Below, piece after piece: positions 24,110-63,972 of a stretch of DNA of 64,000 nucleotides. The stretch comes from Candidatus Falkowbacteria bacterium (GTDB lineage: Bacteria > Patescibacteriota > Patescibacteriia > UBA11705 > JABHMO01), in contig JACRNX010000031.1 of NCBI GenBank assembly GCA_016214755.1, positions 18,020 to 82,019 of the forward strand. The letters are read 5' to 3'. The notes beneath the pieces are model-generated. The model had not been told where the DNA came from. It ran no database searches and saw only the letters and a list, made by a program, of their open reading frames with translations. Position 1 is the stretch's first letter; every line of letters begins with the position of its first letter. Position numbers and translations under genes: made by a program.

Positions 24110-24160
24110 ATTAATGATTTTAAAATATTTTCCGAAGGATATAGTCCTGCCCAATTGTTT

Positions 24161-46285: not shown

Positions 46286-46833
46286 ATTTGATCTTTCACT
46301 CGGATGTCTTCAAGGCCGCATTTCCACGGCTGGCCAGCGGTTTGTTTGATTTTAAATATTTTTTCAGTCGCGAATAAATATACAAATGCGCACAAAACAA
46401 GCGGCAATAAAGTTAAAAATAATGGGAGTGCTAATGCTTGTACGAGACCGATTTTAAACAAATAAAATTTGCTAATACGCTTCAGTTTCCAATCAATCGT
46501 GCAATGAAGCCAATTTTTTATGCCGAAGAATGTTAATAATAAAATTACGTTTTCAAATCCATTAATGTCAAATTGTTTATGCGGAATAATGGCGCTGTCA
46601 TAATGTTGACGTCGTATTTCCAAAATTGTCTTAATACTGATATTGCCAAAGCCGTAATCATCCTTTTCCTTGGTGCAATAAATCCGGCGGATGTTCTTTT
46701 GCGCCTGCAAAAAAGATGTTTGTTTTTTATTGTCCAACAAACAGATATCTGCTTGCGGAAATTCATTCGGCAAACTGCGCAAAAGTAGACCAAGTAAATC
46801 GCATTGAATTGTTCGAATAATCAAAATTTTCAT
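46282..46833 (-). CDS. GT9 (heptosyltransferase)-like N-terminal domain protein, truncated
   Basis: MKILIIRTIQCDLLGLLLRSLPNEFPQADICLL resembles the MKILIIRxxxxGDxxLxxP...FPxAxIdxL start of ADP-heptose:LPS heptosyltransferases. Only 183 aa with a hydrophobic C-terminus. Confidence 0.35.
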   Translation of the reverse strand: MKILIIRTIQCDLLGLLLRSLPNEFPQADICLLDNKKQTSFLQAQKNIRRIYCTKEKDDYGFGNISIKTILEIRRQHYDSAIIPHKQFDINGFENVILLLTFFGIKNWLHCTIDWKLKRISKFYLFKIGLVQALALPLFLTLLPLVLCAFVYLFATEKIFKIKQTAGQPWKCGLEDIRVKDQI

Positions 46834-47787
46834 TTATTTGCCTTTAAAATTAAAGCCAATCGTAATTTTTTCTGCTTGTTCTGGCGTTAGAGCAATTCTC
46901 TCGTTGTATAATCTTGGCGTTTTGGCGAGGCCACTCAACAGCGCCTTTAACAAAACGCTTCGCCGCCGCGAAACGCAATCAACCGCAACGCACCAAGAAT
47001 ATTTTATCAACCAGATTAAGGTTTTTATGTTAAGCGGATAATATTTTAAAACGAACATTAAGCTGCTTCTGGCGGAAGTAAAATTTGCGATTGGATTGCC
47101 GGTTCTATAATTAAACGAGCTGTCAACCGCAAAGCCCCATTTGTTGTCATTTTTTTCAGTGTCGTCCGAGGCAAACGCATGAAAGACATAAAGGTCGCTA
47201 AAATTTTTTGCGATCATGCCCGCTTTCATTACTTTTGCCGAAATTCCCAATTCATACGGCGAAGTGTGCCCCCATTCCTCCCAATAGCCGTATTGTTCTA
47301 CGATTTCCTGGCGATATCCGCCGCCGCAACCAGACCAATAGTAATTTTCTGATTCGCTTTTTGATTCGGCCAAGTGAGCCTCGTCGTAATAATTGGCAAT
47401 AAACGCTTTCTGGTTATAGACATTGAATGCAATCAAGCCAAGCCGCGGATCGCATTCAAATTCCTTTACCATTCGGGTAACGCACTCCCTGCCTGGGAAA
47501 GAATCATCATCCAGCGATACCAAATATTTTCCAGTTGCTTCTCGGCAGGCCATGTTTCTCGCCGCGACTCCGCCGATATTTTCCATCGTTCTTAGACATT
47601 TCACTTGGGAAAATTTTTCTTTAATCGCTTCACTGCTTCCGTCCGAAGAACAATTATCAACGACAATTACTTCAATTGGCCGATAAGATTGTTCGTATAT
47701 TTTTCCCAGAGTTTTTAGTATTTCATCCTTTCGATTGTAGGTCGAGAGAAAGAAGCTGACTAGGGGATTATTCATCGTTGCCACCAT
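46834..47787 (-). CDS. glycosyltransferase family 2
   Basis: LVSFFLSTYNRKDEI ... VVDNCSSDGS ... SLDDDS motifs. Confidence 0.85.
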   Translation of the reverse strand: MVATMNNPLVSFFLSTYNRKDEILKTLGKIYEQSYRPIEVIVVDNCSSDGSSEAIKEKFSQVKCLRTMENIGGVAARNMACREATGKYLVSLDDDSFPGRECVTRMVKEFECDPRLGLIAFNVYNQKAFIANYYDEAHLAESKSESENYYWSGCGGGYRQEIVEQYGYWEEWGHTSPYELGISAKVMKAGMIAKNFSDLYVFHAFASDDTEKNDNKWGFAVDSSFNYRTGNPIANFTSARSSLMFVLKYYPLNIKTLIWLIKYSWCVAVDCVSRRRSVLLKALLSGLAKTPRLYNERIALTPEQAEKITIGFNFKGK

Positions 47788-48367
47788 AAAAATATTTATT
47801 TATCTCTGTTTGTCGCAGATATTTGGCGCGGAACAGCTCCTTAACCATATGCACGATAATCAAATGAGCGTCCTCAATTCGCTCCATGGATTGCGTGTTC
47901 ACCACAATCGCCAAATCAGCTAGTTGCGAAAGTTTTCCGCCCATCTGTCCTTTATAATTGCCAGTTAATCCGATTGTAAAAACTCCTTTGCTTTTGGCGT
48001 ATTCTATGCCGCGTAAAACATTTTCCGAGTTACCGCTGCCGCTAAATCCGATTACTAAATCACTTTCATTCAAGAAAATTTTGAGTTGTCCCTCAAAAAT
48101 ATGTCCATAAGAATCATCGTTGGCGAATGCGGTCACGGCGGCGATATTATCAGTCAAGCAAAGCGTTTTTACTTCCAGGGACTTTGACCAATCGCCAGCG
48201 GCATGCACAGGCGTCGCGGCCGAACCGCCGTTGCCGATGACATAAACGGTTTTCTGCTTTTGCTTAATCTCAAACAATTTCGTGGCGATCGTGTCAATGT
48301 CATTATGACGCAAATTCGTGATCGCTGAAATTAAATCAAGTTGATATTCTTTAGTGTGCGCCTCCAT
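47768..48367 (-). CDS. gmhA: D-sedoheptulose-7-phosphate isomerase (SIS domain)
   Basis: VYVIGNGGSAATPVHAAGDW and IGFSGSGNSENVLRGIEYAKSKGVFTIGLTG match the GmhA SIS-domain signatures. Confidence 0.8.
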   Translation of the reverse strand: MEAHTKEYQLDLISAITNLRHNDIDTIATKLFEIKQKQKTVYVIGNGGSAATPVHAAGDWSKSLEVKTLCLTDNIAAVTAFANDDSYGHIFEGQLKIFLNESDLVIGFSGSGNSENVLRGIEYAKSKGVFTIGLTGNYKGQMGGKLSQLADLAIVVNTQSMERIEDAHLIIVHMVKELFRAKYLRQTEINKYFYGGNDE

Positions 48368-48381
48368 ATGATTTTAGTTTA

Positions 48382-51024
48382 CTAATTTAAATTCCCGTGA
48401 AATTCATTTAAGAAATTTGCTACCATGAGCGGTATCCTTTTACCGTTAAAGAAGGAATATTCCAAACTGTCTTGTTCGCTCTGCGTTGTTCTTGGATGTT
48501 TATAATATCTCATTGCCCACCAAAGGTCATTCAAGCGCGGGAGGTCATCTTCCGTGTACGTCCAAATTTTCTTTTTTAATTCTGGAATTATAAACGGCCA
48601 TTCTACTGCCATAGAAAAAATTTTATGGAGATAGTTTATTTGTCTTGCGTGAGGCACATTAAGAACAGTTCGATCGTGAAAACTAGGCGCCATTGAATCA
48701 AGAAAATCATCAGGGAGCTCTCCCGCCTCCCTCGCGATAGTATTTAAATGCGTTCCAGGATAAGGTGTGCAAATGCCAACCCAGGCAAAATGTGGCTGAA
48801 TTTCCGCATTTAATTCAATAGAATCAAAATCATTTTCCAGCTTTGTTGTAGGAATGCCAACCATGCTATGGGTAGTCAAATTAATTCCGTATTTCATTGC
48901 CGAGCGGCATCCCTGAATAATTCTATCATTTGATATTATCCGGCATAAGACATTTTTTCTAACATTTTCATTGCCGCTTTCCAAACCAACAAAAATCGCT
49001 TCGCAGCCATGCTTTGCCATTTGCTCAAAACTTTCATCATCGCGCGTTTCGAGTCGGCATGAACAGATGAAAGGTTTCGTGATTTTTCTTTTATATTCAT
49101 CAAGAAATAAATAGAGGGTTTCCTTGTTAGGAAAAAATAAATCATCGTGAAAATTAAATTTAGGCGGATCATATTTATCATTAAGATACTGAAGCTCTTC
49201 AATTGTATTTTTAATGCTTACATTCCATTGCTTGCCCTTGCCGGCATAAATTTCATTGTATTTCGAATTAAAACAATATGAACAATGATACAGACAGCCG
49301 CGCGATGCCATAATATTCATCGGCCCGGTTTTATCTTCGTGACGAATGAATAATTCGCGATCAGCCCAAGGAATTTGTTCAGATGGAATTTTATTGCCGA
49401 CAGGATTTTTTACTATTCTCCCGTTGTTTTTTATATGAAGGTTGGGAATGTCATTAAAATCCATTCCCTTTTGAACTCGCTTAGCAAGCTCGGCCATGGC
49501 AATTTCACCTTCGCCAATACAAATAATATCAATTCCGTCCTGTTCAAGTTCTTCGGGGAAAAAGGTTGGATGAGAGCCGCCAACAACGCAAAGGAAATTA
49601 AATTTCTCTTTTAATTTTTTAATAAGACGCCGACACTGAATATGTTCGTGAGCCGTGATATTAAATCCAACGATGTCAGGTTTAAAAGCCATCATTATTT
49701 TTTCTATGTCGTCTCCTAGATTAATCAACGCTCCTTCAACAATATGCCCGTCTTTCTTCAATACAGTTGATAAAATTTGCAATCCTAAGGGAATTTCCTT
49801 TGAAGCGCTTGCAAGCAATATTTTTACAGGGCCTTTTTCCTGCATGCTAAATTGCACTGTCGCTGGTACCTTTTTTTGTTTTGATTGTTTTAATGAGTCA
49901 ACCACATAATGCACTTGAGTTTCATCTAAATATAGGTGTAATGGCAATGACAAAATTTTTTCGTAGGCGTTTTCTGCAATTGGAAAATCGCCCATCCTGT
50001 AGCCCAACGTTTGATACGGCGCAAAATAATGCAGCGGCGTGTAATGAACGCTCGTTTGCACTCCGAGTTCGTTTAATTTATGATAGACGGCATCGCGCGC
50101 TAAACCAAAATCTTTTTCGATCTTTATCACGTAGAAATGCCAAGATGATTTGGCGTAATCTTTTTCATTCGGAATAGTGATGCCCTCAATGTTTTTTAAT
50201 AACTCAGAATATAGTCCGGCCAATTTTTTCCTAATCGCATTGAATCTTTCAACTTTTTTTAATTGAGTGATGCCGACGGCCGCTTGTCCTTCGCTCATTC
50301 GGCAATTATAGCCGACTTGAACGCAATCCCTGAACCATGGTTTCTCCAAAACTGCTGAACCGGCGTAATTGCTCAAATATTTGATTCCATGATTTTGAAA
50401 AAGTTTAATTTTCTCCATCGCCTCGACGGTTGAAGCAGTGACTATGCCGCCTTCGCCCAGCGTTGAAATGTTTTTTTGAGTGTAAAAACTATAGGCCGCG
50501 AAATGCTCAAACGAACCGATTCGTCGAGATTTATGCTCGGCGCCGATTGCGTGGGCCGCGTCGCTGATTACAGGCAAATTGTAATGAGCGGCTAAGTCCA
50601 TTATTTTATCCATATTAGCTGGATGACCTGAATAATGAACTGGCAAAATCGCTTTTGTTTTAGCGGTTATTTTTTCTTCTATCTTATCAGCGTCAATATT
50701 TAAAGTGTCAGGTTCGACATCAACAAAAATTGGTATCGCCTTTTCCAGCATAATGACATTGGCGGTTGCCACCCAGGTGATCGGCGTGGTGATAATTTCG
50801 TCTCCGGGTTGAATGTCAATTCCTTTCAAAGCAAGGTGGAGCGCGGTCGTACAACTGGAAGTTGAAAGCGCGTATTTAGCGCCTGCAAACGCGCTAAACT
50901 CGCGTTCGAATTGCTTAATCACGTCCCATTTATTGTATTCGATCGGTTTTTCCAATAGATCAATGATCGCTTTCTTATCATCATCTTCGTAAATGTTACC
51001 TCGCTGAGCAAAATAAACTTTCAT
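48382..51024 (-). CDS. fusion protein: DegT/DnrJ/EryC1-family aminotransferase domain + cobalamin-binding radical SAM domain
   Basis: N-terminal 390 aa are a fold-type I sugar aminotransferase (ITTPITWVATAN..., SFYTQKNISTLGEGG). Next is a B12-binding-like domain (VKILLASASKEIPLGLQILST...DIVGFNITAHE). Then IMASRGCLYHCSYCFNS (CxxxCxxC). 880 aa. Confidence 0.75.
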   Translation of the reverse strand: MKVYFAQRGNIYEDDDKKAIIDLLEKPIEYNKWDVIKQFEREFSAFAGAKYALSTSSCTTALHLALKGIDIQPGDEIITTPITWVATANVIMLEKAIPIFVDVEPDTLNIDADKIEEKITAKTKAILPVHYSGHPANMDKIMDLAAHYNLPVISDAAHAIGAEHKSRRIGSFEHFAAYSFYTQKNISTLGEGGIVTASTVEAMEKIKLFQNHGIKYLSNYAGSAVLEKPWFRDCVQVGYNCRMSEGQAAVGITQLKKVERFNAIRKKLAGLYSELLKNIEGITIPNEKDYAKSSWHFYVIKIEKDFGLARDAVYHKLNELGVQTSVHYTPLHYFAPYQTLGYRMGDFPIAENAYEKILSLPLHLYLDETQVHYVVDSLKQSKQKKVPATVQFSMQEKGPVKILLASASKEIPLGLQILSTVLKKDGHIVEGALINLGDDIEKIMMAFKPDIVGFNITAHEHIQCRRLIKKLKEKFNFLCVVGGSHPTFFPEELEQDGIDIICIGEGEIAMAELAKRVQKGMDFNDIPNLHIKNNGRIVKNPVGNKIPSEQIPWADRELFIRHEDKTGPMNIMASRGCLYHCSYCFNSKYNEIYAGKGKQWNVSIKNTIEELQYLNDKYDPPKFNFHDDLFFPNKETLYLFLDEYKRKITKPFICSCRLETRDDESFEQMAKHGCEAIFVGLESGNENVRKNVLCRIISNDRIIQGCRSAMKYGINLTTHSMVGIPTTKLENDFDSIELNAEIQPHFAWVGICTPYPGTHLNTIAREAGELPDDFLDSMAPSFHDRTVLNVPHARQINYLHKIFSMAVEWPFIIPELKKKIWTYTEDDLPRLNDLWWAMRYYKHPRTTQSEQDSLEYSFFNGKRIPLMVANFLNEFHGNLN

Positions 51025-53087
51025 AAATTAATTTTATTTAAATTTCGCACTTGATAAAATAAATTTTCTGGTGCGATTTGTTCCGACATCTTTCGGAGCG
51101 ATAGATTTTTCGAGTGGGATTTATATTGGTCGAATAAACTTTTAATTAAACTTTCCTGCGTGTCTGATAAATAGAATTCATATTGAAAGTTTCCGCAAGG
51201 CAAATCGTCTTTATGGCCAGATAAGCGCCAGGTTAAAATATCAAATTCAAACATTTTGATTTTTGAACGAATAAAATCATCGTTTGTTAAGTTAATTTGT
51301 AAGTTATTTGAAAAATCCAAGACATTTTGGCATTGTTTTAAAAATAAATCCGATTGTTTTGTCGCGGCTTCGCTAAAAATTTTCTTAGCGACTTGATAAA
51401 GGAAATCATTAAAAGCGGGTTGTTTTTCCAATAAAATCTTGTAAGTGTACAAATAATTTAATTTGCCGTAATCGCCGCTTCGGAGCCGCGCGAAATTTTC
51501 CTCACGCCGCCAATAATCAAAAAGTTCTTCTTTGGTATCAAACAATTCCAAATTATGATCGCGCGAAAAATCTTTATATAATTCGTTTATTTCATGCTCT
51601 GGCGATGTAATTATCTGACTGGCTCTTAGAATTACTTCTAGCGGATGAACATTTATTTTTTTAAATAAATTCAGGAAATCATAATACCATTTTTTTGACC
51701 ACATAAATTGAATCAAAAAATGGATGAAACGAAATGAACGTAAATCAGCCATTGACATGGTGCTTGTTTCCATAACATTCTCTTCGGCGTCGAACACTTT
51801 TCTGCCCTCATAAATGCCAAAGCTCATATCAAACAATCTCCAAGCCGTGCGGCGAACAAATCTATTTCTTGACTCCTGACTGTCTAAAACCGTTCCTGGC
51901 AGTAAATGCAAATTGTAATTGAAAATTTCCGTTTCCAAATCCATCATCCTTTTGTTTGTCTCAATATGGCTCTCTTTAGTTTCCAAAGGCAGTCCCAAAA
52001 TCAGTTCCGTGGACATACCCAGTTCAGCTTTCTTAAGTTCTTGATGCAGTTTAAGTAGCTCCGACCAAGAAATATTTTTCCTTTTGACCACATCTAGCGT
52101 CGGCTGATGCAGTGTTTGCATTGAGGCGCAATATTTTGTCAATTTGCCGAATTTTTTAATAATTTTCAAAAGCAATTCTGGATTTGATTTATTCCAACAT
52201 ATGTCCACATATCCTGGATAGCTGTATTTTTGACTGCATTCATAAATCTTGTCCGCGATATCAGCGTCTCTTGGGAAAAGACCAAAATTTGCGTCTGCTA
52301 ATTCCAATATTTTGGTTTTTGTGCAACGTTGGCCAATGTATTCAATCTCCAAAATAACGCGTTCCTTACTGAAAGTCGTCACCCTTTTTGATTTTTTCCC
52401 CCAAGCGCAAAAGGCGCATTCATAAGGACAGGAACGATTTGTTTCAATAATCGGAATGTACGGCTGATTGAAAAATTCATCCAACAATCCGGAAAGATAC
52501 GGTGAAGGAATGGAATCAAGATTAACGAATCCGTCAATCAATCCGCCAATCTGAACCGCATTTTCATTAAAGATGTTGTTGACAAGACATCCTGCAATCG
52601 TCTGCTGTCTAAATTTGTTCAAATCTAAATCACATTTTAAGAATTTATCAATAATATTCTTAAATCCAATTTCGCCGGAATCAACCACAAAAGCGTCGCA
52701 ATCTTGATGTTTAGAGAAAAATTTTTTTGCTCCTTCTTCGTTGGCGTTCAGGGAGCTAAATTCTGGACCGCCGCCGACAGTGAGCGTGTCCGGAGAATAT
52801 TGTTTGGTTATTTCAAAAATTCTTTTATTTAATTGATTGACCCAGCAGTAATAAGAGAGTCCGACAACTGTCGGTTTTTCGGCTTTGATGGCGCTGATAA
52901 TTTCAGCCGGACTTTTGAAAAGTTTAATTTCTGTTTTCGGATAAAATTTAAACAAATACGCCGCCACGCTCGCCACGCCCAGCGGGAAAGCCCAGGTGCC
53001 GACTTTTTCCCAATCATGTTCCAAACTGCCTAAAAATATTTTCATCTTTAATATTATTTTATTTGTCAGTCCACCGCAAAAAATCAT
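51021..53087 (-). CDS. cobalamin-binding radical SAM enzyme with about 400-aa C-terminal extension
   Basis: N-terminal B12-binding-like domain (KIFLGSLEHDW...TVVGLSYYCWVNQ), ETNRSCPYECAFCAWG rSAM motif. 688 aa. Confidence 0.7.
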   Translation of the reverse strand: MIFCGGLTNKIILKMKIFLGSLEHDWEKVGTWAFPLGVASVAAYLFKFYPKTEIKLFKSPAEIISAIKAEKPTVVGLSYYCWVNQLNKRIFEITKQYSPDTLTVGGGPEFSSLNANEEGAKKFFSKHQDCDAFVVDSGEIGFKNIIDKFLKCDLDLNKFRQQTIAGCLVNNIFNENAVQIGGLIDGFVNLDSIPSPYLSGLLDEFFNQPYIPIIETNRSCPYECAFCAWGKKSKRVTTFSKERVILEIEYIGQRCTKTKILELADANFGLFPRDADIADKIYECSQKYSYPGYVDICWNKSNPELLLKIIKKFGKLTKYCASMQTLHQPTLDVVKRKNISWSELLKLHQELKKAELGMSTELILGLPLETKESHIETNKRMMDLETEIFNYNLHLLPGTVLDSQESRNRFVRRTAWRLFDMSFGIYEGRKVFDAEENVMETSTMSMADLRSFRFIHFLIQFMWSKKWYYDFLNLFKKINVHPLEVILRASQIITSPEHEINELYKDFSRDHNLELFDTKEELFDYWRREENFARLRSGDYGKLNYLYTYKILLEKQPAFNDFLYQVAKKIFSEAATKQSDLFLKQCQNVLDFSNNLQINLTNDDFIRSKIKMFEFDILTWRLSGHKDDLPCGNFQYEFYLSDTQESLIKSLFDQYKSHSKNLSLRKMSEQIAPENLFYQVRNLNKINL

Positions 53088-54109: not shown

Positions 54110-55303
54110 TTATTTGATTATCTCGACGGCTATTTGCCATAAATCCTTATCTGACGACACCAAAAAGGTTTTTACCTCGGCCGCTTCACCTGCCTGCCGG
54201 TCGGTTTCATCGTCACCGATATAAATCGCCTCGCTTAAATTAAGATGATGCTCTCGCGCTGCTTGGAAAAACATTCCTGGTTTTGGTTTCCGGCATTCGC
54301 AGTCATCGTCGCTTGAGTGGGGACAATAATAAATGGCGTTTACCTCGATATTGTTTTTCATCAGTTCCTCGTTCATGCGGCGATGAATGTCGTTCAAATC
54401 CTCTATGGTCATCAAGCCACGGCTGATACCCCGCTGATTTGTGACAATGTAAAAAACATATCCGTTTGATTTGAGCAGTTTTAACGCCGGGATAACCGAC
54501 GGCAAAAACTCAAACTCTTCCCATTTTTTGACATAATCATGGCTGGGCATTTTTTTATTAATTACGCCATCGCGGTCGAGAAAAATTACTTTTTTATGAG
54601 CTAAAAAGCTTTCCGCTCTCTTCAGATATTCAATGTTTGTTATCGGATAATAGGGATGGTCCGTTCGATAGCCGATTAATTGATTCTGTTCTATCAATTT
54701 TGGGAAGATAACAGTTTGAAACGAAAAGTTATCAGCCGGCATCATCTCCAGCACTTTCTTGTTTAGGATAAAAAAACCGATTTCCGTTCCGTTTAATCTT
54801 TCGTCTTGACGCGTTTGGTCATAAAAAATAACGCGTCCATCAGCGCCAACCGCAATATTGTTTTCAAATCCGTACTCTCCCGCGCCGTCTTTGTTATTAT
54901 AAACAGTTGTCATCGCCAACACGTTTTTTGAACGATAAAAATTCAGCATCTTCGGCAGATTCATCGGCCAATAATTATCGCCGTACATCACGAGAAACTC
55001 GTCGTGAAGCATGTCAGCAGCATTGTGTATCCGAGCGCCGGTTTCATCTTCAACCGTTCCAATGGAGTATTTTATTAGCAAGCCGAATTTGCTGCCGTCG
55101 CCAAAATATTCAGTGATTTTTTCCGCCAAATATCCCGACAAAATTACGACTTCTTCAATGCCATTTTTTTTAAGCAACTCAATTAAATACTCCAAAAAAG
55201 GTCTTCCGTTTATTGGAATCATCGGCTTCGGAATTGTCTCAGTTAGCGGCCTTAATCTTGCGCCTAATCCGCCAGCTAAAATCACTGCCTGTTTAACGCT
55301 CAT
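54110..55303 (-). CDS. bifunctional D-glycero-D-manno-heptose-1-phosphate nucleotidyltransferase (HddC-like) / D,D-heptose 1,7-bisphosphate phosphatase (GmhB-like HAD)
   Basis: N-terminal AVILAGGLGARLRPLTETIPKPM (sugar-phosphate nucleotidyltransferase). C-terminal VIFLDRDGVINKK ... YYCPHSSDDDCECRKPKPGM ... YIGDDETD are GmhB HAD motifs. The start is placed at the internal ATG 55303 (MSVKQAVILAGG), which leaves a 7-nt gap to the upstream stop; the track ORF begins at 55363. Confidence 0.75.
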   Translation of the reverse strand: MSVKQAVILAGGLGARLRPLTETIPKPMIPINGRPFLEYLIELLKKNGIEEVVILSGYLAEKITEYFGDGSKFGLLIKYSIGTVEDETGARIHNAADMLHDEFLVMYGDNYWPMNLPKMLNFYRSKNVLAMTTVYNNKDGAGEYGFENNIAVGADGRVIFYDQTRQDERLNGTEIGFFILNKKVLEMMPADNFSFQTVIFPKLIEQNQLIGYRTDHPYYPITNIEYLKRAESFLAHKKVIFLDRDGVINKKMPSHDYVKKWEEFEFLPSVIPALKLLKSNGYVFYIVTNQRGISRGLMTIEDLNDIHRRMNEELMKNNIEVNAIYYCPHSSDDDCECRKPKPGMFFQAAREHHLNLSEAIYIGDDETDRQAGEAAEVKTFLVSSDKDLWQIAVEIIK

Positions 55304-55310
55304 ACATGAA

Positions 55311-56309
55311 TTAAAAATGTCTGGAATTATAAATAATTTCACTGCCGTGAGACGAGAGTTCAACTTGCAATTCCTTTAAATCCGCTAATGCTTTCCTCAC
55401 ATTTTCATGATTTTCTGGCTTGCAATAGAAAAGTAAAAAACCGCCGCCGCCTGAACCAAGCAATTTCCCGCCTATCGCGCCCGCCTTGATTGCTCTTTCG
55501 TAATAATCATTAATTGCGTCATTGCTTATTTTACTCGCCAATTCTCTTTTTGCCAGCCAGCCCTGATGCAGAGTATTGCCGATATTATCTAAATTATTTT
55601 GCTTTAATTCTGAACGCAATTGTTCGGCATATCCAACCATTCTGATTAATTTATTTCTAGTTTCTTCTTTAGTTAAAGTATTGGCTTTCTGCTCGCTTAA
55701 AACTGCTTTTGAGTCAGAGTTCATGTTTGTATTGAAAAGAAGCAAATTTTGATTTAAATAGCGCCTGCTTTTATCATCAAGATGAATTGGTTCGGCGATT
55801 ACATTGTCGTCGGCATTGAAACGAAAATAATTCAGTCCGCCAAAAGCGGCCGCGTATTGGTCTTGTTTACCAATCGGCTGGTCCAGCAACTCAATCTCTA
55901 TTTTGCAAGCTTGTTCAGCCAGCATCTCCGGCGAAACTTGAACACCTTTGTACGCGTAAAGAGCGTTTAACACGCCAACGGCAATACTGCTGGAAGAACC
56001 CAACCCTGTTCCCCAATCGTACGGCTGAACATCAGCCATATAAACAATATCTATTCCCTTATTAATGCCGCCAACAAGTTTGAGCGCTTCTCTGATTATA
56101 TTGTGCTGAATTTTTTCTATATCGTAAACCAATTCTGTTTGCGAATAGCTGACGCGGATGTAATCATCAAATTTTTTATTGACAATCACATAAACATATT
56201 TATTAATCGTCGTGCTGACCACGGCGCCGTATCCTGTTTGATAAAAGGCCTTAAGGTCAGAGCCGCCGCCGCTAAAACTCATTCTAAGGGGTGTGCGCGA
56301 AATAATCAT
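55311..56309 (-). CDS. GHMP-family sugar kinase (D-glycero-D-manno-heptose 7-phosphate kinase HddA-like)
   Basis: MIISRTPLRMSFSGGGSDL N-terminus, PxGxGLGSSSS ATP-binding motif (DWGTGLGSSSSIAV), and the GHMP C-terminal GAIGGKLLGSGGGGFLLFY. Confidence 0.8.
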   Translation of the reverse strand: MIISRTPLRMSFSGGGSDLKAFYQTGYGAVVSTTINKYVYVIVNKKFDDYIRVSYSQTELVYDIEKIQHNIIREALKLVGGINKGIDIVYMADVQPYDWGTGLGSSSSIAVGVLNALYAYKGVQVSPEMLAEQACKIEIELLDQPIGKQDQYAAAFGGLNYFRFNADDNVIAEPIHLDDKSRRYLNQNLLLFNTNMNSDSKAVLSEQKANTLTKEETRNKLIRMVGYAEQLRSELKQNNLDNIGNTLHQGWLAKRELASKISNDAINDYYERAIKAGAIGGKLLGSGGGGFLLFYCKPENHENVRKALADLKELQVELSSHGSEIIYNSRHF

Positions 56310-57075: not shown

Positions 57076-57151
57076 GGGTTAATGTGGAATAATTATTGAC
57101 TTTTCACAATTAGATTGACAAGATTATCTCTTGGCGAGATAATGGAAGCAT

Positions 57152-57652
57152 ATGAACCATGCTCATACTCTTTCATTATCCCATCGGGATAGAACGGCCA
57201 TGGAGCGCCGGCGGCTTAAAGCCGCGAAGCTCTTCGCCAAAGGTCGTAGACAGGCTGATGTGGCCAGAACCCTCGGAGTTAGCCGTGAGGCGGTTCGCCA
57301 GTGGCATGATATCTGGAAAAAGAAGGGGAAGATTGCTTTGCAAAGCGCCGGCAAACCAGGTCCCAAGTCTCAACTAACGCCCGAAAAATTAAGATTAGTG
57401 AAGAAAGCATTGTTAAGAGGTCCGACGGCCCATGGATTTGCCACTCAGCTGTGGACACTTGAACGGATCGCGGCCATGATCAGGAAAGTGGCCGACGTTT
57501 CTCACGGTACGACGCGGGTGTGGCAGGTGTTACAATCTCTTAATTGGTCGTGCCAAAGGCCTGAAACACGCGCCCATGAACGAAATGAGGCGGCCATCCG
57601 CCGCTGGCAAAACACCGCCTGGCCGCGCATTAAAAAAAAGCAATGCGAATAG
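57152..57652 (+). CDS. IS630-family transposase OrfA (HTH DNA-binding part)
   Basis: RRRLKAAKLFAKGRRQADVARTLGVSREAVRQW helix-turn-helix. Ends just after the A8G slippery run at 57632..57640. Confidence 0.8.
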   Translation: MNHAHTLSLSHRDRTAMERRRLKAAKLFAKGRRQADVARTLGVSREAVRQWHDIWKKKGKIALQSAGKPGPKSQLTPEKLRLVKKALLRGPTAHGFATQLWTLERIAAMIRKVADVSHGTTRVWQVLQSLNWSCQRPETRAHERNEAAIRRWQNTAWPRIKKKQCE

Positions 57653-58206
57653 GCGCAAAATTGGTCTTCTGGGACGAATCCGGCATTTCGCAAAAAGCGA
57701 GCGTCCGGCGAACATGGTCTCCCAAAGGGCGCACGCCGGTTATTGTTTCGACCGGCTCATGGCGGTCGCGGTCGGTTATCGGCATTATTACCTGCACACC
57801 GCGCGGCAGAAAGCCGAAACTGTTTCTAAGGATTTTCAAACACGCCATCAAATATCCGGATATCATTCGATGCCTCAAAGAGCTGCACCGTCATGTCAAA
57901 GAACGAATAATTTTAATGTGGGACGGTTTGCCCGGTCATCGGGCACGCGCTACTCGTTTGTTTCTGATAACGCAGAGACACTGGCTCGAAACGCATCGTT
58001 TCCCCGCCTATGCGCCGGAGTTAAATCCGCCGGAATATCTGTTTTCCGCACTAAAATCCCGCAATCTTACCGGCCTACATGTGGCCACCATCGATGAAAT
58101 TGATGCCCACATTAAAATCGGCAAGCGTCGTCTCCAAAGGCGACCGGATATTCTGAATGGTTTTTTAAAAGAGTCGAGATTGTTTGATAAAGAGTTGTCA
58201 ATCTAA
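57643..58206 (+). CDS. IS630-family transposase OrfB (DDE catalytic part; probably expressed as OrfAB via -1 frameshift)
   Basis: VFWDESGIS ... LMWDGLPGHRA ... PAYAPELNPPEYLFSALK, the DDE/D motifs of the IS630/Tc1 superfamily. This frame is open from 57634, inside the A-run. Confidence 0.8.
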   Translation: MRIGAKLVFWDESGISQKASVRRTWSPKGRTPVIVSTGSWRSRSVIGIITCTPRGRKPKLFLRIFKHAIKYPDIIRCLKELHRHVKERIILMWDGLPGHRARATRLFLITQRHWLETHRFPAYAPELNPPEYLFSALKSRNLTGLHVATIDEIDAHIKIGKRRLQRRPDILNGFLKESRLFDKELSI

Positions 58207-59241
58207 TTGTGAAAAGTCAATAGAGCCGGGCAAATTCTGGTTGACAAGTTCTAATATGCGTTTTTCAATCAGCTCATCAATGGCCTTAACTTCGCCCGGC
58301 CAGCCCTGGCTGTAATCATGAAATATGATCGGCGCGCCATTATTTAAGTGCGGTTGAATATGCTGAAAAATTTCCATGATTTCATCGTAAGTGTGAAATA
58401 AATCAATAAAGGCAAAATCATATATTTCCTTGTTATCCCGCAGAAAATCTTGATATAACATTTTTTGAGGAATTATTACGGCCTTATATTCAGAATTAAA
58501 AGAAATATTCTTAATGAATTCGTCGTAAAAGCTCTCTCCGTATGTTTGCGCAAATTTTTCTTCTATGGCGATGCCTTCCCAACCAAAGGTATCAACTGAA
58601 GTGACTGAACCGCCGTTGTTTTTTAGTACGCCTTTGGCTAAAAAATGTGTGCTTTTGCCACAGGCCGGACCAAGCTCAAGAATTTTTTTGCCTTTTGTCG
58701 CCATAACAGCTTTTTCCAAATATTTTCCCTCTTCTAAAATAAATTGCCCCCGCCGGCTGGAAAAATAATCATACAACGCCAGCTCGCCCAAATCGTTGAC
58801 AGTCGCCATACCGTTTTTGCGGATCGGTTTGAATGCGTTGTAATAATAATTGTCAAAATACCAATCAAATTCAATCGGCGAGTACGACTCGCAATATAAA
58901 CCAATCTCGATAAAATCCTGTGGCTCGCTTAACCCGGAAGCGATCAATGCCTGCGATATTTCTTCCCAATGTCTGGAGGCGATGACAATCAGACATTGAT
59001 TTGACCTGTTGACGCTTTCTTTACGAAATTCTTCAAAGCGAACAATTTTGATTTTGTCAAGATGACAATTTTGGGCATTCTGGTCAATAAATCCTTGAAT
59101 TTGAACATTTAATTCACTTTGCAGAGCTGACTGCAATCGTCCACCCATAAACCCGGCGCCGTAGATCCAAATCGGTCTTTTATTCAAATCAAAAAATGAA
59201 TTTAAAATTTTTAATACACTATCACCGTTTTCGTTTGTCAT
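58198..59241 (-). CDS. SAM-dependent methyltransferase (class I, O-methyltransferase-like C-terminal domain)
   Basis: KKILELGPACGKSTHFLAKG motif I and acidic motif II region (IDLFHTYDEI). The last six codons plus the stop (DFSQLD*) are encoded inside the IS right inverted repeat. Confidence 0.6.
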   Translation of the reverse strand: MTNENGDSVLKILNSFFDLNKRPIWIYGAGFMGGRLQSALQSELNVQIQGFIDQNAQNCHLDKIKIVRFEEFRKESVNRSNQCLIVIASRHWEEISQALIASGLSEPQDFIEIGLYCESYSPIEFDWYFDNYYYNAFKPIRKNGMATVNDLGELALYDYFSSRRGQFILEEGKYLEKAVMATKGKKILELGPACGKSTHFLAKGVLKNNGGSVTSVDTFGWEGIAIEEKFAQTYGESFYDEFIKNISFNSEYKAVIIPQKMLYQDFLRDNKEIYDFAFIDLFHTYDEIMEIFQHIQPHLNNGAPIIFHDYSQGWPGEVKAIDELIEKRILELVNQNLPGSIDFSQLD

Positions 59242-59249
59242 AATTTACT

Positions 59250-61016
59250 TTATGTTATGGCTGAAATAATTCTCTCGGCTACTCTGGTCGCGCCGTTCGC
59301 ATCTATGGCGCCAACTAAACCTTTTTCAATTTGAGACATTTTTGCAAACGCGTTAAAGGTTTTGTGAAATTGTTCTTGGTCAATCTCGCCAATCAGGCCA
59401 AAATATTTAAAATTTTTTGTCTTCAAAAAATTTTTATTTAGTTTTTCTTCGTGTTGCGCTATCGCCAAAACCGGAACCTGCAAATAAAACGCTTCGTAGA
59501 TTGATTGGCCGAATCCCAATATCACGAAATGACAGCCAGCCAGCGCTTCGGCGAACGATTTGTTGTCGCCGAGAACAAAGGTATTCAGATTTAATTTATT
59601 GATTTGCCTTTTCACCTGCGATCTTTTTTTATTAAACGGGCCCAGATATACGCCGAATGGCTGTTTGAATCCCCCGTTATCCAAAAACTTTAGAATTTTC
59701 CAAGTTATGTTTTTAGGGTCAGCGCCGCCACCGCAAATTAAAACATATTTCCCCTTTTTTCTTTTTTGCCTTTTAATCTCGTTTCGGATGATCGCGTATT
59801 GCGCGCCGAAAATTATATTTTTCCATTTAAATGGAATCACGCTGTGGCCATTGGGAATAATGTACAAATCCGCGCCATTTACTTTTTTGTCTAGCCGATC
59901 AATGACAATAACCTTTCTCGCGCCACGCCTGATTTGTTTAATGCTGACATCAAACAGCGTATCAATTATTACTCCAGTAGCGTTGTTTGACTTCAAAAAA
60001 TTATAAAAATCATTTTCTGAATCTATGACAAAATAATTAAAATTATTTTCAGACAATGTCTTTTCCGTCTGTTTGTTTCGTCGGGCGACAAAAGTTATTC
60101 CGCAAAAATATTTGTCTTGCAATTCCTTGGCCAGCGCCATCATTCTTTGCAAATGGCCCAGCCCGATTTTTTCAGAAGCGTCAGTTCTGATTATAAATTT
60201 ATGACTAACGTCTATTTTTGATTTTTGCTTTACTTCCGCGTTGATCAACCACAATTTTTTGTCCTTTTTATAAAGCGCGATTACTTTATTCAGATTAATA
60301 AGCTCTTTTCGATTTTTCCATAAACGATTGTAAATTTCCCTCATAAATCGCAAGTCGGAAATTGTATCAACCGAGAGTCGGAGCATATGTTTATTAAAAG
60401 GAGCGCGCAAATTCACTTCAAACCATTTGAATTTCTCAGAATTTTCTTTTAAATAAATATTCAAATGTTCTTTATGATAGGGCTGACTCGCATTCTGATA
60501 CTGGACTTCAAGCGCGGACATCTTGCAGACATCAAGCCCTTCGTGCTGGCATTGCTGGCCACTTTTTAATTTGGCTGAATCAGCTTTTGTCTTTATCATT
60601 CCCGTGACTACATCGTCAACAAATTTTGGGTCAATCAGCGGACAATCGCCGCAAATGCCGGCAATGATGTCCGCCTTTACCCATTTCGCCGCGGCCAGAA
60701 CGCGACCGACGACATCGTTGATATCGCCGTGATAACGAAAAACTCTGTAACCTATATTTTTGACATATTTTGCCAGCGGATTATCGGTTTTATCGCTCGA
60801 AGTAGCTAAAATTATTTCATCAATCGTTTTAGTTCTTTTTAAACGATCAAAAATATGCCAAATCATCGGTCGGCCGTTGATATCAATTAATGCTTTGCCC
60901 GGCAAGCGCGAGGATGACATTCTCGCCCTGACGATAGCTACAACCCGTGTTCTTTTTTCCATATGTCTCTTGTTTTTAACAATGGCCGCAATCCATCGCT
61001 CGGGTCTGCCCGCCAT
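59250..61016 (-). CDS. fusion: SpsF/PseF-like cytidylyltransferase + PseG-like UDP-sugar hydrolase (UDP-2,4-diacetamido-2,4,6-trideoxy-L-altropyranose hydrolase family)
   Basis: N-terminal VVAIVRARMSSSRLPGKALIDINGRPMIWH (CTP_transf_3 family). Central-to-C-terminal IIRTDASEKIGLGHLQRMMALAKEL resembles the PseG signature (IRADAS..G.GH..RC..LA). Overlaps the upstream NeuB-like gene by 79 nt; the alternative internal Met at 60962 reduces this to 25 nt. Confidence 0.65.
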   Translation of the reverse strand: MAGRPERWIAAIVKNKRHMEKRTRVVAIVRARMSSSRLPGKALIDINGRPMIWHIFDRLKRTKTIDEIILATSSDKTDNPLAKYVKNIGYRVFRYHGDINDVVGRVLAAAKWVKADIIAGICGDCPLIDPKFVDDVVTGMIKTKADSAKLKSGQQCQHEGLDVCKMSALEVQYQNASQPYHKEHLNIYLKENSEKFKWFEVNLRAPFNKHMLRLSVDTISDLRFMREIYNRLWKNRKELINLNKVIALYKKDKKLWLINAEVKQKSKIDVSHKFIIRTDASEKIGLGHLQRMMALAKELQDKYFCGITFVARRNKQTEKTLSENNFNYFVIDSENDFYNFLKSNNATGVIIDTLFDVSIKQIRRGARKVIVIDRLDKKVNGADLYIIPNGHSVIPFKWKNIIFGAQYAIIRNEIKRQKRKKGKYVLICGGGADPKNITWKILKFLDNGGFKQPFGVYLGPFNKKRSQVKRQINKLNLNTFVLGDNKSFAEALAGCHFVILGFGQSIYEAFYLQVPVLAIAQHEEKLNKNFLKTKNFKYFGLIGEIDQEQFHKTFNAFAKMSQIEKGLVGAIDANGATRVAERIISAIT

Positions 61017-61828
61017 TCACGGTCAATTGATTCGCTTTCCTTGCAACGTTTCACTCCGTCGCCGTCGCTAAGGGTGTAATCAGCTGTCAAATTAACATCT
61101 GCCTTGATGTCTCGGATAACTTTTTCAATTTGTTCCGGAAGCCAATTATATCCGCGCGCGAATTCTTCCCCTTTTCCGTCCAAATCCAAATGGAATTCTA
61201 TGCTTGAGGCCTGCCATCTAAACGCGGCGCGCGACAAAACTTTTTCATCAACGCTGTGATCTGACCAGCCGGCCAAACAGTTAAACATTTTTCTGTATGT
61301 TTCCAAGACCGACAAATTGCATTCAGCCGCCGGCGCGGGATAACTGGACACGCAATGGTACAAGGTGATTTCTTTGGCGTCGGATTTTTTTAAAATATTA
61401 ACTGCCTTAGCCACTTCTTCAGTATTGGCCATTCCTGTCGCGAGTTTAATCGGTTTTCCTGTCCACGCGCATTTTTTCAACAATCCCTCCCAAAGAATTT
61501 CGTATGACGCGATTTTAAAATAATCAACATAAGGCGCGAGAATATCCACTGCTTTCTGATAAAACGGCGTGCAGGCGAATTTCAATCCCAACCCGTGGCA
61601 TTCATCAGCCAATTTTGGAATAAATTCAACGGGCAATTCCCATTTTTTCCGGCTGCGATGCTCCTCGCTTGTGGCCAATATCTCGGACGCGAAAAGTTCG
61701 TCAATTTTAAATAATTGGAATTTAACGCCGTCGCAGCCGATTTTTTTCGCGATTTGGATAAATTCCAGACAGCGGCCGAGATTCTGGCTGTGATTGCTTG
61801 AAACTTCGGCGATGAATTCAACATTCAT
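60938..61828 (-). CDS. NeuB-family nonulosonic acid synthase (pseudaminic acid synthase PseI-like), lacking an obvious C-terminal SAF domain
   Basis: IAEVSSNHSQNLGRCLEFIQIAKKIGCDGVKFQ matches the NeuB/PseI/SpsE N-terminal TIM-barrel signature (AE.S.NH.G....A..MI..A...GADAVKFQ). Confidence 0.7.
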   Translation of the reverse strand: MNVEFIAEVSSNHSQNLGRCLEFIQIAKKIGCDGVKFQLFKIDELFASEILATSEEHRSRKKWELPVEFIPKLADECHGLGLKFACTPFYQKAVDILAPYVDYFKIASYEILWEGLLKKCAWTGKPIKLATGMANTEEVAKAVNILKKSDAKEITLYHCVSSYPAPAAECNLSVLETYRKMFNCLAGWSDHSVDEKVLSRAAFRWQASSIEFHLDLDGKGEEFARGYNWLPEQIEKVIRDIKADVNLTADYTLSDGDGVKRCKESESIDREWRADPSDGLRPLLKTRDIWKKEHGL

Positions 61829-61832
61829 AAAA

Positions 61833-63002
61833 TTAACAAAACTTTTTTATTATTGATTTCACATTCTCAATCAAATAACCTTGCTCATCGTCAGTCAATG
61901 AATAATAAATCGGCAAGCTAACGCATTCAGAATAATATCGGTCGGCGTTAATATATTTTTCAGCGTCATAACCTAATTTTTGGTAATACGAATTGCGATT
62001 GATCGGACGATAATGAATTTGCACTTTTATATTTTTCTCATGCAATTCGTCAAAAATTTGGCGGCGCTTGCTGATTAAATAATCATCGGCCAAACGCAAT
62101 ATATAAAGATGCCAAGCCGGATTGTATTTGCCTAAATCATAAAACGGCAATTTTATTCTAGGCTGTAATTCTGCAAAGGCCTCATTATATCGTTCGGCTA
62201 TCATCCGCCGTCTATTTAAAAACAATCCGACTTTTTTTAATTGGGAAATGCCCAGCGCGCACTGAAAATCAGTTAACCGATAATTGAATCCCAATTCGCG
62301 CATATCATAGCACCAAGCGCCTTCAGCCGCTGTCTCCTCATCTTTATAAATACCGTGACTGCGCAGCGCGCATAATTTTTCATATAATTTTTCACCATTG
62401 GTTGTAATCATTCCACCCTCACCGGTTGTCATGAGTTTCACCGGATGAAAACTAAACACCGCCATGTCTGAATGTTCGCAACTGCCGACTTTATGCCATT
62501 TCCCGTCCGCGAAATAATCCGCGCCCAGCGCGTGGCAAGCGTCTTCAATCACGATTAATTTATTCTTTTGGGCGGTTTCATAAATGCTGGGCAAATCAGC
62601 GGGCAATCCAGCAAAATGGACAGGAATAACCGCTTTGGTTTTTTCAGTGATTTTGTTTTGAATCTGCTTCGGGTCAATATTTATATTATTATAATCAATA
62701 TCAGCGAATATCGGCTTAGCGCCGACGTATAAAAGGCAATTCGCGGTCGCGACAAAACTGATCGGCGTGGTAATCGCTTCGTCGCCATACTCGAAACCAG
62801 CGGCTAACGCGGCGAGATGGAGCGCCGCCGTGCCCGATGAGACCGCAATCGCGAATTTTACGCCGCAATATTCAGCGAACGCGTTTTCAAATTCTTTAAC
62901 CCTTGGCCCTTGGGTCAGCCAATCTGAACGGATAACTTCAATCGCGAAATTAACATCCGAATTATCAATAAATTGTTTGCCGTACGGTATTATTTTGTCC
63001 AT
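61833..63002 (-). CDS. pseC: UDP-4-amino-4,6-dideoxy-N-acetyl-beta-L-altrosamine transaminase (PseC-type DegT aminotransferase)
   Basis: IPYGKQFIDNSDVNFAIEVIRSDWLTQGPRVKEFE near the N-terminus is the PseC-type signature. Fold-type I aminotransferase, 389 aa. Overlaps pseB by 38 nt. Confidence 0.8.
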   Translation of the reverse strand: MDKIIPYGKQFIDNSDVNFAIEVIRSDWLTQGPRVKEFENAFAEYCGVKFAIAVSSGTAALHLAALAAGFEYGDEAITTPISFVATANCLLYVGAKPIFADIDYNNINIDPKQIQNKITEKTKAVIPVHFAGLPADLPSIYETAQKNKLIVIEDACHALGADYFADGKWHKVGSCEHSDMAVFSFHPVKLMTTGEGGMITTNGEKLYEKLCALRSHGIYKDEETAAEGAWCYDMRELGFNYRLTDFQCALGISQLKKVGLFLNRRRMIAERYNEAFAELQPRIKLPFYDLGKYNPAWHLYILRLADDYLISKRRQIFDELHEKNIKVQIHYRPINRNSYYQKLGYDAEKYINADRYYSECVSLPIYYSLTDDEQGYLIENVKSIIKKFC

Positions 63003-63972
63003 TTTCGTATTTGTAAATAATATGCCTCAATTCTTCATCAGAAAGCCAGCGATCGTTATTGTTGCTGTGATATCCCTCAAAATCTTCGGGCAAAGATTTT
63101 TCATCATTGGCAACCGGACCGAAATGAGCCGCCAACGGCCTCATAACGAACCGATCTGCTTTTTCAAACGTGTATCTCGCGTCATCCGCGGTCACAAGCG
63201 TCTCGTGCAATTTCTCGCCCGGTCTTATGCCCGTGATTTTAATTTCCGAATTAGGCGCGATCGCTTTGGCGAGATCAACGACGCGCATGCTCGACAATTT
63301 AGGCACGAAAACCTCTCCTCCGCTCATCATGCCCAAACAATTAATCACAAATTCAACTCCTTGCTCCAATTGTATCCAAAATCGCGTCATTCTAACGTCA
63401 GTCACGGGAATGGGCAATCCTTGCATTTTACATTCGTGAAAAAATGGAATCACGCTGCCGCGCGAACCGAACACATTGCCATAGCGTACGACGCTGAACA
63501 TCGTTCTGTTTGGACAAAATTTATTGGCCGCGATGAATATCTTTTCAGCGCACAATTTCGTCGCGCCATACAAATTCACCGGACTCGCCGCTTTGTCAGT
63601 GCTGATGGCGATAACCTTTTCAACATTTTTATCAATGGCGGCGTTAATTACATTTTGCGTGCCGATTATATTTGTCCTAACCGCTTCAAACGGATTATAT
63701 TCCGCGGTTGGAACTATTTTAAAAGCCGCCGCGTGAATCACAATGTCAACATCATCAAAGGCGCGATGCAATCTTTCCGGATCGCGGATGTCGCCGATGA
63801 AAAATCTCACGTCAGCGTGTTTGAATTTTTCCGCCATTTCATACTGTTTCATTTCGTCGCGGCTGAAGATAATGAGTTTCTTCGGGCGATACTTGGACAG
63901 GACAATTTCCGTGAATTTTTGTCCGAACGAACCGGTCCCGCCGGTTATTAGTACGACCTTATGGTCAAGCAT
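62965..63972 (-). CDS. pseB: UDP-N-acetylglucosamine 4,6-dehydratase (inverting), PseB/FlaA1
   Basis: VLITGGTGSFGQKF, RFFIGDIRD, HAAAFKIVPTAEYNPFEAVRTNIIGTQNVI and ISTDKAASPVNLYGATKLCAEK are near-canonical PseB/FlaA1 motifs. Confidence 0.9.
   Translation of the reverse strand: MLDHKVVLITGGTGSFGQKFTEIVLSKYRPKKLIIFSRDEMKQYEMAEKFKHADVRFFIGDIRDPERLHRAFDDVDIVIHAAAFKIVPTAEYNPFEAVRTNIIGTQNVINAAIDKNVEKVIAISTDKAASPVNLYGATKLCAEKIFIAANKFCPNRTMFSVVRYGNVFGSRGSVIPFFHECKMQGLPIPVTDVRMTRFWIQLEQGVEFVINCLGMMSGGEVFVPKLSSMRVVDLAKAIAPNSEIKITGIRPGEKLHETLVTADDARYTFEKADRFVMRPLAAHFGPVANDEKSLPEDFEGYHSNNNDRWLSDEELRHIIYKYENGQNNTVRQTIY

Follow-up and report, generated by a model that had tools for sequence, protein, structure and literature searches.

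A candidate PseH-independent, Sfm-type module for a nonulosonic acid in a glycan locus of Candidatus Falkowbacteria

In a 64,000-nucleotide stretch of DNA from a Candidatus Falkowbacteria bacterium (contig JACRNX010000031.1; the whole stretch is hereafter called the window), five neighbouring minus-strand open reading frames (ORFs) encode PseB, PseC, a short NeuB-family nonulosonate synthase, a fused SpsF-SpsG protein and a methyltransferase-like protein. We consider it fairly probable (about 0.6) that this region is the core of a PseH-independent pathway of the Sfm type, which would produce a CMP-activated 5,7-diamino-3,5,7,9-tetradeoxy-nonulosonic acid whose C4 amine is acylated through an ATP-grasp enzyme.

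In the proposed pathway, PseB would dehydrate UDP-GlcNAc at C4/C6 and invert C5, and PseC would aminate C4 to form UDP-4-amino-4,6-dideoxy-beta-L-AltNAc, from which the SpsG-like domain would take off UDP by hydrolysis. The synthase, of the SfmA type and devoid of a SAF domain, would condense the free 6-deoxy-hexosamine with phosphoenolpyruvate, and the SpsF-like domain would convert the product into a CMP-sugar. The C4 amine (N7 of the nonulosonate) would not undergo acetylation by a GNAT enzyme; it would most likely be acylated by an ATP-grasp carboxylate-amine ligase, using an acid built or tailored by the co-conserved thiamine pyrophosphate (TPP) enzyme, short-chain dehydrogenase/reductase (SDR) and methyltransferases of the same operon-like array. 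Since Pfam domain scans of the window detected no Maf (PF01973), GlfM or flagellin gene, and a Wzx/Wzy polysaccharide locus is present instead, the product is expected to enter a Wzx/Wzy-type surface polysaccharide. From the gene content we infer the order of these reactions, the pseudaminic acid (Pse; L-glycero-L-manno) stereochemistry, the nature of the acyl group and the ligase that attaches it.

The pathway type takes its name from Shewanella oneidensis MR-1, in which sfmABCDE (SO_3261-3265) are required for flagellin modification and PseB and PseC are present, clear orthologues of PseH, PseG, PseI and PseF being absent (PMC3765264). The flagellin glycan of S. oneidensis contains a 274-Da Pse-like nonulosonate that has two nitrogen atoms and a single N-acetyl group, whose substituent is an O-methylated moiety of 236, 250 or 264 Da (C9H16O7 to C11H20O7; PMC3765264). 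As sfmA-D are all needed for any modification to be observed, its authors concluded that the complete donor is assembled before transfer (PMC3765264). Additionally, deletion of SO_3261, in a construct named pseI, has been reported to abolish glycosylation (bioRxiv 10.1101/2023.12.03.569772). A literature search on the sfm genes found nothing newer in the collection searched, and another on Patescibacteria and nonulosonic acids surfaced no paper linking them, which is weak negative evidence.

The core genes

All five ORFs appear in the ORF listing with the content and order, and at the positions, originally predicted:

62965-63972, minus strand, pseB, 335 aa
61833-63002, minus strand, pseC, 389 aa, overlapping pseB by 38 nt
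60938-61828, minus strand, SfmA-type SAF-less NeuB-family nonulosonate synthase, 296 aa
59250-61016, minus strand, fused spsF-spsG ORF in its longest form, 588 aa
59250-60962, minus strand, fused spsF-spsG gene from M19, 570 aa, overlapping the synthase gene by 25 nt
60333-60941, minus strand, SpsF-type cytidylyltransferase domain (residues 26-228 of the 588-aa ORF; CTP_transf_3, PF02348, 97.8 bits)
59457-60200, minus strand, PseG/SpsG-like GT-B UDP-sugar hydrolase domain (residues 273-520 of the 588-aa ORF)
58198-59241, minus strand, Methyltransf_24-domain gene after the fusion gene, 347 aa

The domain matches of these genes are strong, fall in long ORFs and are far beyond chance; their identities, homologies, synteny and co-occurrence are direct observations. 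The original prediction was confirmed as far as its observations are concerned, and its interpretation was borne out in part only, as detailed in the following sections.

The description of pseB and pseC as near-canonical agrees with their scores, as both products lie above the NCBIfam equivalog cut-offs (PseB, 473.5 bits on TIGR03589, cut-off 407.75; PseC, 472.1 bits on TIGR03588, cut-off 423.5, with 389 bits on PF01041). PseB aligns over its whole length with the UDP-GlcNAc C6 dehydratase of Helicobacter pylori (PDB 2gn4, E 1e-109) and keeps the STDKAAxPxNLYGATK motif (Tyr-xxx-Lys) of that enzyme. On these grounds, the pseB product is predicted to be an inverting-type UDP-GlcNAc 4,6-dehydratase, and that of pseC a C4 aminotransferase dependent on pyridoxal phosphate.

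A synthase family without a SAF domain

The original prediction described the synthase as a short PseI from which the C-terminal SAF domain appeared to be absent. The second part of this description holds: the only domain match is NeuB (PF03102, residues 24-243, 184.5 bits), and the last 60 residues, scanned separately, matched no Pfam family. The first part does not, since the protein reaches 156.1 bits on the PseI model TIGR03586 (cut-off 340.25; model positions 4-253 of 327) and 149.8 bits on the NeuB equivalog model (cut-off 400), and it belongs, untruncated, to a large family of synthases without SAF. Members of this family are typically about 285-296 aa long. Among the best 120 database matches (55-80% identity), all but two (308 and 513 aa) measure 280-303 aa, and NeuB is their only synthase domain.

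Every catalytic and metal-binding position is kept across 20 aligned family members, the window synthase retaining E8, N12, H13, K36, Q38, K105, S108, E110, S189, D190, H191, E211 and H213. The family also has a C-terminal tail, W272-R-A-D-P-x-D-G-L-R-P282 (WRADPxDGLRP), that is invariant in all 20 of these members and present in the window synthase. A scan for this motif, with one genome per species, recovered synthase relatives in at least 469 species genomes from many phyla, including Desulfuromonadota, Desulfovibrionia, Shewanella, Marinobacter, Kordiimonas, Verrucomicrobiota, Firmicutes, Acidobacteriota, Nitrospinota, Ca. Kuenenbacteria and one metagenome-assembled genome of Methanothrix. 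The latter member, with a WRADPxDGL tail (10001-10861 of locus L042), lies on a contig binned as this archaeon and is flanked by genes for PseB, PseC, SpsF, SpsG, an SDR, a TPP enzyme, an ATP-grasp enzyme and a GH57-like protein. The window synthase is 60% identical to its Syntrophotalea homologue and 54.5% identical to the SfmA homologue of Shewanella khirikhana (60938-61828 in the window), and its best PDB match is SpsE of Bacillus subtilis (1vli). The absence of the SAF domain is not rare, about 30% of 13,941 nonulosonate synthases, mostly from environmental bacteria, having been found without it (PMC8208679).

The cytidylyltransferase-hydrolase fusion

The predicted fusion of a cytidylyltransferase and a hydrolase of the SpsF/SpsG type was recovered, with CTP_transf_3 and a PseG-like region in a single ORF. 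Its SpsF-type domain matches cytidylyltransferase 6oew in the PDB (E 2.5e-28) as well as KdsB structures, the best matches belonging to a KdsB-like subfamily, and may be a CMP-nonulosonate synthetase. It had also been proposed as PseF, of which it is not an orthologue (24.9 bits on TIGR03584, cut-off 205.7). The SpsG-like domain obtains 107.5 bits on the PseG model TIGR03590, under the cut-off of 153.55, and aligns with Campylobacter jejuni PseG (PDB 3hbm, E 3.5e-9) so that IGLGH lies against IGFGH and the catalytic His of GxGH is kept. This hydrolase is very divergent, with only 2 of 1.84 billion representatives matching at E <= 1e-30.

Homologues of the fusion, about 570-600 aa long, are found in Clostridium botulinum, C. 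beijerinckii, Shewanella and many metagenomes. As all 14 fusion homologues compared start 5-10 residues ahead of the VVAIxxARMSSSRLPGK motif, the true start is M19 (ATG at 60962). The N-termini of these homologues led us to reject both M1, the start of the longest ORF, and M33, the start in public gene calls (P0001 and P0003). Consequently, of the 25-79 nt of overlap with the synthase gene in the original prediction, the 25 nt stand and the 79 nt, which correspond to the form with M1, do not. This 25-nt overlap contains GGAAAAAAG, and the SpsF frame is -1 relative to that of NeuB. A programmed -1 frameshift from NeuB into SpsF-SpsG was considered and rejected, since the junctions between the synthase and the next gene in 36 related loci are ordinary (overlaps of 1, 4, 8 or 19 nt, or short gaps) and have no conserved slippery motif; simple translational coupling is favoured. 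Neither the fusion nor the short overlap is distinctive, as this is the commonest arrangement in the synthase family. Furthermore, a natural triple fusion, NeuB-SpsF-SpsG, occurs in one chain of 853 aa (P0005) in a locus (L002) that is syntenic with the window, and this single polypeptide ties the three activities together.

Absence of an acetyltransferase

No GNAT or hexapeptide acyltransferase turned up in the window when each of its 52 minus-strand ORFs of 120 aa or more was scanned against Pfam, in accordance with the reported lack of a PseH-type gene. For this absence, the original prediction had offered two explanations, a non-acetyl substituent (with ATP-grasp ligases in mind) or a pseH beyond the window end. 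The former is favoured, as the window has sfm homologues. The latter finds no support in the 10 kb that follow: L001, a public contig that matches the window end exactly and reaches 10 kb upstream of pseB, carries no acetyltransferase gene there. At the opposite end, the one public contig retrieved stops at window position 1. Directly before pseB, and on the same strand (L001 6351-9983), it encodes a 2-hydroxyacid-dehydrogenase/UDP-sugar-dehydrogenase fusion, a PF04199 "cyclase", from the amidohydrolase family that resembles kynurenine formamidase, and a HAD hydrolase. These three conserved genes also come before pseB in L002, L004 and the Kuenenbacteria locus L009, and are not found there in Shewanella or Syntrophotalea.

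Two further candidates were considered and discarded. A conserved 183-aa ORF (46282-46833), a candidate cryptic PseH, has no Pfam match even at E = 1 and has a hydrophobic C-terminal segment, and the GH57-like protein described below, a candidate cryptic acyltransferase or deacetylase, has the fold of GH57/GH38 enzymes in its AlphaFold2 model and no acyltransferase fold.

A survey covered 53 loci of at least 15 kb around members of the synthase family. BLAST found PseB in 33, PseC in 31 and SpsF in 42 of them, and hidden Markov models placed SpsF in 43, fused to SpsG in 23, separate from it in 16 and alone in 4. An ATP-grasp ligase is present in 40 loci, an SDR in 29 and a GH57-like protein in 23. 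The TPP enzymes that accompany the synthase family are either of the IlvB or of the transketolase/1-deoxy-D-xylulose-5-phosphate (DXP) synthase type: 17 loci have an IlvB- or DXP-synthase-type enzyme and 16, partly the same, a split transketolase. Maf is found in only 13 of the 53 loci and is thus not universal to the biosynthetic module. The otherwise unassigned ORFs of the survey (320 of 110-330 aa, in 176 clusters) include twelve largest clusters that were identified by eye as methyltransferases, transketolase halves, flagellar proteins, HAD, SIS and similar proteins. In the representatives of 150 further clusters, matches to any one GNAT or hexapeptide family never numbered two or more, and the N-acetyltransferase family PF02522 had two matches. 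The pattern across the survey indicates that the absence of PseH is a property of the family and no accident of the window.

Candidate genes for acylation

The genes that might build and attach the acyl group lie 12-20 kb downstream of the core:

45047-46285, minus strand, SfmD-like methyltransferase (Pfam)
43933-45066 and 42776-43957, minus strand, two ATP-grasp ligases (Pfam)
42031-42801, minus strand, FabG-like, SfmC-like SDR (Pfam; 35.6% identity to Shewanella SfmC)
40236-42059, minus strand, DXP-synthase/transketolase-type TPP enzyme (Pfam)
38968-40254, minus strand, SfmE-like ATP-grasp ligase with a LAL_C2 domain (37.7% identity to a Shewanella khirikhana gene over the full length)
37067-38971, minus strand, GH57/GH38-fold protein, 634 aa (35.8% identity to an S. 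khirikhana gene over the full length, E 7e-130)

The methyltransferase and the first two ligases are 47-50% identical to genes of a Kuenenbacteria locus (L003) that is syntenic both with the fusion gene and with the block at 38968-47787, from which it follows that core and accessory block travel together in this lineage. The AlphaFold2 model of the GH57-like protein (pLDDT, a per-residue confidence score, 89.3) consists of an N-terminal barrel, a helical region and a C-terminal beta-sandwich, its best fold matches being GH57 4-alpha-glucanotransferase and GH38 mannosidases. The pairing of such a glycoside-hydrolase-like enzyme with a nucleotide-sugar pathway is puzzling; in Shewanella its gene lies between those of the ATP-grasp ligase and the SpsF/G fusion.

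In S. khirikhana (L007), the gene order is Maf-2, GlfM, short NeuB (286 aa), TPP enzyme, SDR, methyltransferase, ATP-grasp ligase, GH57-like protein, SpsF/G fusion, pseC, pseB and Maf-1, with no acetyltransferase. The first five biosynthetic genes of this series correspond to sfmABCDE of S. oneidensis, which there too adjoin genes for a GH57-like protein, an SpsF/G fusion, PseC and PseB, and eight of its nine flagellin-glycan genes have homologues in the window. Besides the synthase, identities in the core amount to 52.9% for PseB (62965-63972), 42.7% for PseC (61833-63002) and 26% for the SpsF/G fusion (59250-60962).

The locus that contains the triple fusion offers a separate observation: positions 18469-20936 of L002 encode a phosphopantetheinyl transferase, an FkbH-like protein, an acyl carrier protein and a MaoC dehydratase. 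This gene content suggests that different loci of the family attach different, sometimes carrier-protein-derived, acyl groups.

Alternative explanations

Several points weigh against the Sfm-type reading. A distance of 12-20 kb, with an insertion sequence (IS), heptose genes and radical S-adenosylmethionine (radical-SAM) genes in between, parts the ATP-grasp genes from the core, and these ligases could serve another sugar, for instance in the amidation of a uronic acid, as a UDP-sugar dehydrogenase is encoded upstream. Homology to the sfm genes is uneven, since the methyltransferase at 45047-46285 is weakly similar to S. khirikhana SfmD (20% identity) and the window TPP enzyme, of the DXP-synthase/transketolase type, is not homologous to Shewanella SfmB, which is of the IlvB type. 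As the enzymes of the PseG, PseI and PseF types score under the curated cut-offs, their substrate specificity may differ from that of the Pse enzymes. Furthermore, the Shewanella pathway itself has never been reconstituted, the choice of ligase, of acid substrate and of acylation stage is conjectural, and a pseH elsewhere in the genome is possible.

This last point leads to a reading that we consider unlikely, namely, a canonical Pse5Ac7Ac pathway with PseH encoded elsewhere and with the fused and short enzymes acting as divergent PseF, PseG and PseI. Although PseB and PseC are canonical, the synthase scores marginally better on the PseI than on the NeuB model (156.1 versus 149.8 bits) and about 74 kb of genome were seen (window plus upstream extension), the PseI, PseG and PseF models all remain well under their cut-offs, an acetyltransferase is absent from every related locus inspected, in agreement with the 53-locus survey, and the Shewanella product has a single N-acetyl group. 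A legionaminic acid pathway like that of the B. subtilis Sps proteins is improbable. It would account for the SpsF/SpsG-type domains and for SpsE (1vli) being the best PDB match of the synthase, as B. subtilis employs such enzymes to make CMP-legionaminic acid (PMC7439481). By contrast, the dehydratase is above the PseB cut-off and matches H. pylori PseB, including Tyr-xxx-Lys, the aminotransferase is above the PseC cut-off and reaches 234.8 bits of the 420 required by the LegC model, there is no SpsD acetyltransferase, and SpsE has the SAF domain that the window synthase lacks. In SpsM/PglF-type retaining dehydratases, Met takes the place of the Tyr of Tyr-xxx-Lys. An M146A allele of SpsM was constructed (PMC7439481).

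The two remaining explanations concern the synthase itself. Instead of the nine-carbon core, the short NeuB might make a 2-keto-3-deoxy acid, which after reduction and methylation would be ligated to form the side chain; we find this slightly more improbable still. By arithmetic, the 236-Da moiety (C9H16O7; PMC3765264) fits a reduced 3,9-dideoxy-nononic acyl group, and the sfm operon of Shewanella opens with the short NeuB gene, next to the TPP, SDR, methyltransferase and ATP-grasp genes. However, in most loci the synthase gene lies between pseC and spsF/spsG, and in P0005 the synthase is fused to SpsF-SpsG; nearly all loci, also those without ATP-grasp or SDR genes, have no other NeuB-family gene, and loss of sfmA removes the whole modification. 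Finally, that the module has decayed, with the synthase as a truncated pseudogene and the locus inactivated by the IS, is scarcely credible and already contradicted by the conservation data. Although an IS630 element lies directly downstream and the synthase falls short of PseI by about 50 residues, its length is the norm of its family, its C-terminal tail is invariant, all five ORFs are intact and the IS is outside them.

The surrounding locus

The predicted methyltransferase-like gene does follow the fusion gene, the 347-aa product having a Methyltransf_24 domain (PF13578, residues 188-310, 58.8 bits), and the Kuenenbacteria locus L003 has a homologous neighbour. The N-terminal 130 residues of the window protein (58687-59241) faintly resemble the nucleotide-sugar-binding N-domain of the PglD/NeuD acyltransferases; a PglD-like sugar-binding N-terminal half was nevertheless rejected, the PglD_N match not being significant (E 0.11). 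Next to this gene is the insertion sequence:

57094-58222, plus strand, IS630-family insertion sequence with perfect 28-nt terminal inverted repeats

The IS630 transposase is split into two ORFs (helix-turn-helix, 57152-57652; DDE_3, 57643-58206), and the right repeat overlaps the stop-codon region of the Methyltransf_24 gene. The element breaks a long minus-strand array, parting the sugar module from the rest of the operon. L001, the single Logan contig over this end of the window, breaks off no more than about 30 nt from the stop codon of the Methyltransf_24 gene, which would be consistent with a multi-copy repeat.

Together with at least 4 kb more upstream, the whole window forms a single continuous glycan locus with about 50 co-directional genes, and several of its genes have their nearest relatives in Ca. 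Kuenenbacteria. Pfam scans detected Wzz, a PglF/WbpM-like dehydratase, a WecA-like initiating transferase, Wzy, a Wzx-type flippase, five DegT aminotransferases, three ATP-grasp ligases, a heptose module, many methyltransferases and several fusions of B12-binding and radical-SAM domains. If the binning is right, a small Patescibacteria genome would be investing very heavily in this locus. A probable nucleotide-heptose module comprises an HddA-like GHMP kinase (55311-56309), a fusion of a nucleotidyltransferase and a GmhB-type phosphatase (54110-55363) and a SIS-domain isomerase (47768-48367). Three of the fusions are unusual: one with a DegT aminotransferase (48382-51024, 880 aa), one of B12 and radical-SAM domains (51021-53087, 688 aa) and one with an SDR epimerase/dehydratase (21686-24154, 822 aa). 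The B12-binding radical-SAM fusions suggest C-methylation or other radical chemistry on sugars. A 641-aa protein (24161-26086) joins a CTP_transf_3 fragment (residues 13-85) to a class I/II aminotransferase, which makes it the second cytidylyltransferase-like gene in the locus.

Significance

The module in the window is intact and ordinary for its family, and the peculiarities for which it was flagged are the norm for this pathway type. Its probable role is to provide a single unusual acidic sugar for a surface-polysaccharide locus of very large size. A broader proposal, which we advance tentatively as the odds are somewhat against it, is that SfmA-type synthases with the WRADPxDGLRP tail and no SAF domain, together with SpsF-SpsG fusions, may form a distinct branch in which the 4-amino sugar is never acetylated and is processed either as the free amine or with a bulky acyl group installed by an ATP-grasp enzyme; a Falkowbacteria cell would then place an elaborately N-acylated Pse-type sugar in a Wzx/Wzy polysaccharide and not on flagellin.

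Genetic knowledge of the PseH-less route dates back to 2013, and its steps past PseC are biochemically uncharacterised. It appears here as a coherent and very widespread gene set, with a simple sequence signature and a Rosetta-stone triple fusion, which is not confined to flagellar glycosylation islands. Loci of this kind should not be annotated as "incomplete Pse pathways", and they provide compact candidates for biochemical reconstitution.

Comparison with known systems

With the canonical Pse pathway of C. jejuni and H. pylori, the window shares orthologous PseB and PseC, and the hydrolase, synthase and cytidylyltransferase steps are homologous or analogous. Unlike that pathway, which has PseH, a SAF-bearing PseI and PseF, the window has no PseH, a synthase without SAF and an SpsF-type enzyme fused to a divergent hydrolase.

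In B. subtilis, SpsM, SpsC, SpsD, SpsG and SpsE, together with SpsF, make CMP-legionaminic acid from UDP-GlcNAc (PMC7439481). A UDP-linked route, SpsG-like and SpsF-like enzymes and a NeuB-family synthase are common to both systems, whereas the separate SpsF and SpsG, the SAF-bearing SpsE and the SpsD acetyltransferase of B. subtilis have no counterpart in the window. Furthermore, SpsM groups with the PglF-type dehydratases (PMC7439481) and the dehydratase of the window module is of the PseB type. The combination that marks the Sps type (retaining SpsM/PglF-type dehydratase, SpsD and SAF-bearing SpsE) was not found in the window.

The Shewanella sfm system shares with the window a SAF-less NeuB (286-290 aa in Shewanella), the SpsF-SpsG fusion, PseB, PseC and the absence of PseH, as well as the FabG-like SDR, the LAL-type ATP-grasp ligase, the GH57-like protein and a SAM-dependent methyltransferase. 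Apart from the type of TPP enzyme, the two differ in that Shewanella has a single ATP-grasp gene and adjacent accessory genes, whereas the window has three ATP-grasp genes and its accessory genes lie 12-20 kb from the core.

A comparison by product can be made with Treponema denticola, whose flagellin carries a Pse-configured sugar with a 2-methoxy-4,5,6-trihydroxyhexanoyl group (PMC13439194). In that sugar, which decorates flagellin and not a polysaccharide, the second amine bears a methylated polyhydroxy-acyl group instead of acetyl, as predicted here; N-acyl Pse variants of this kind therefore exist.

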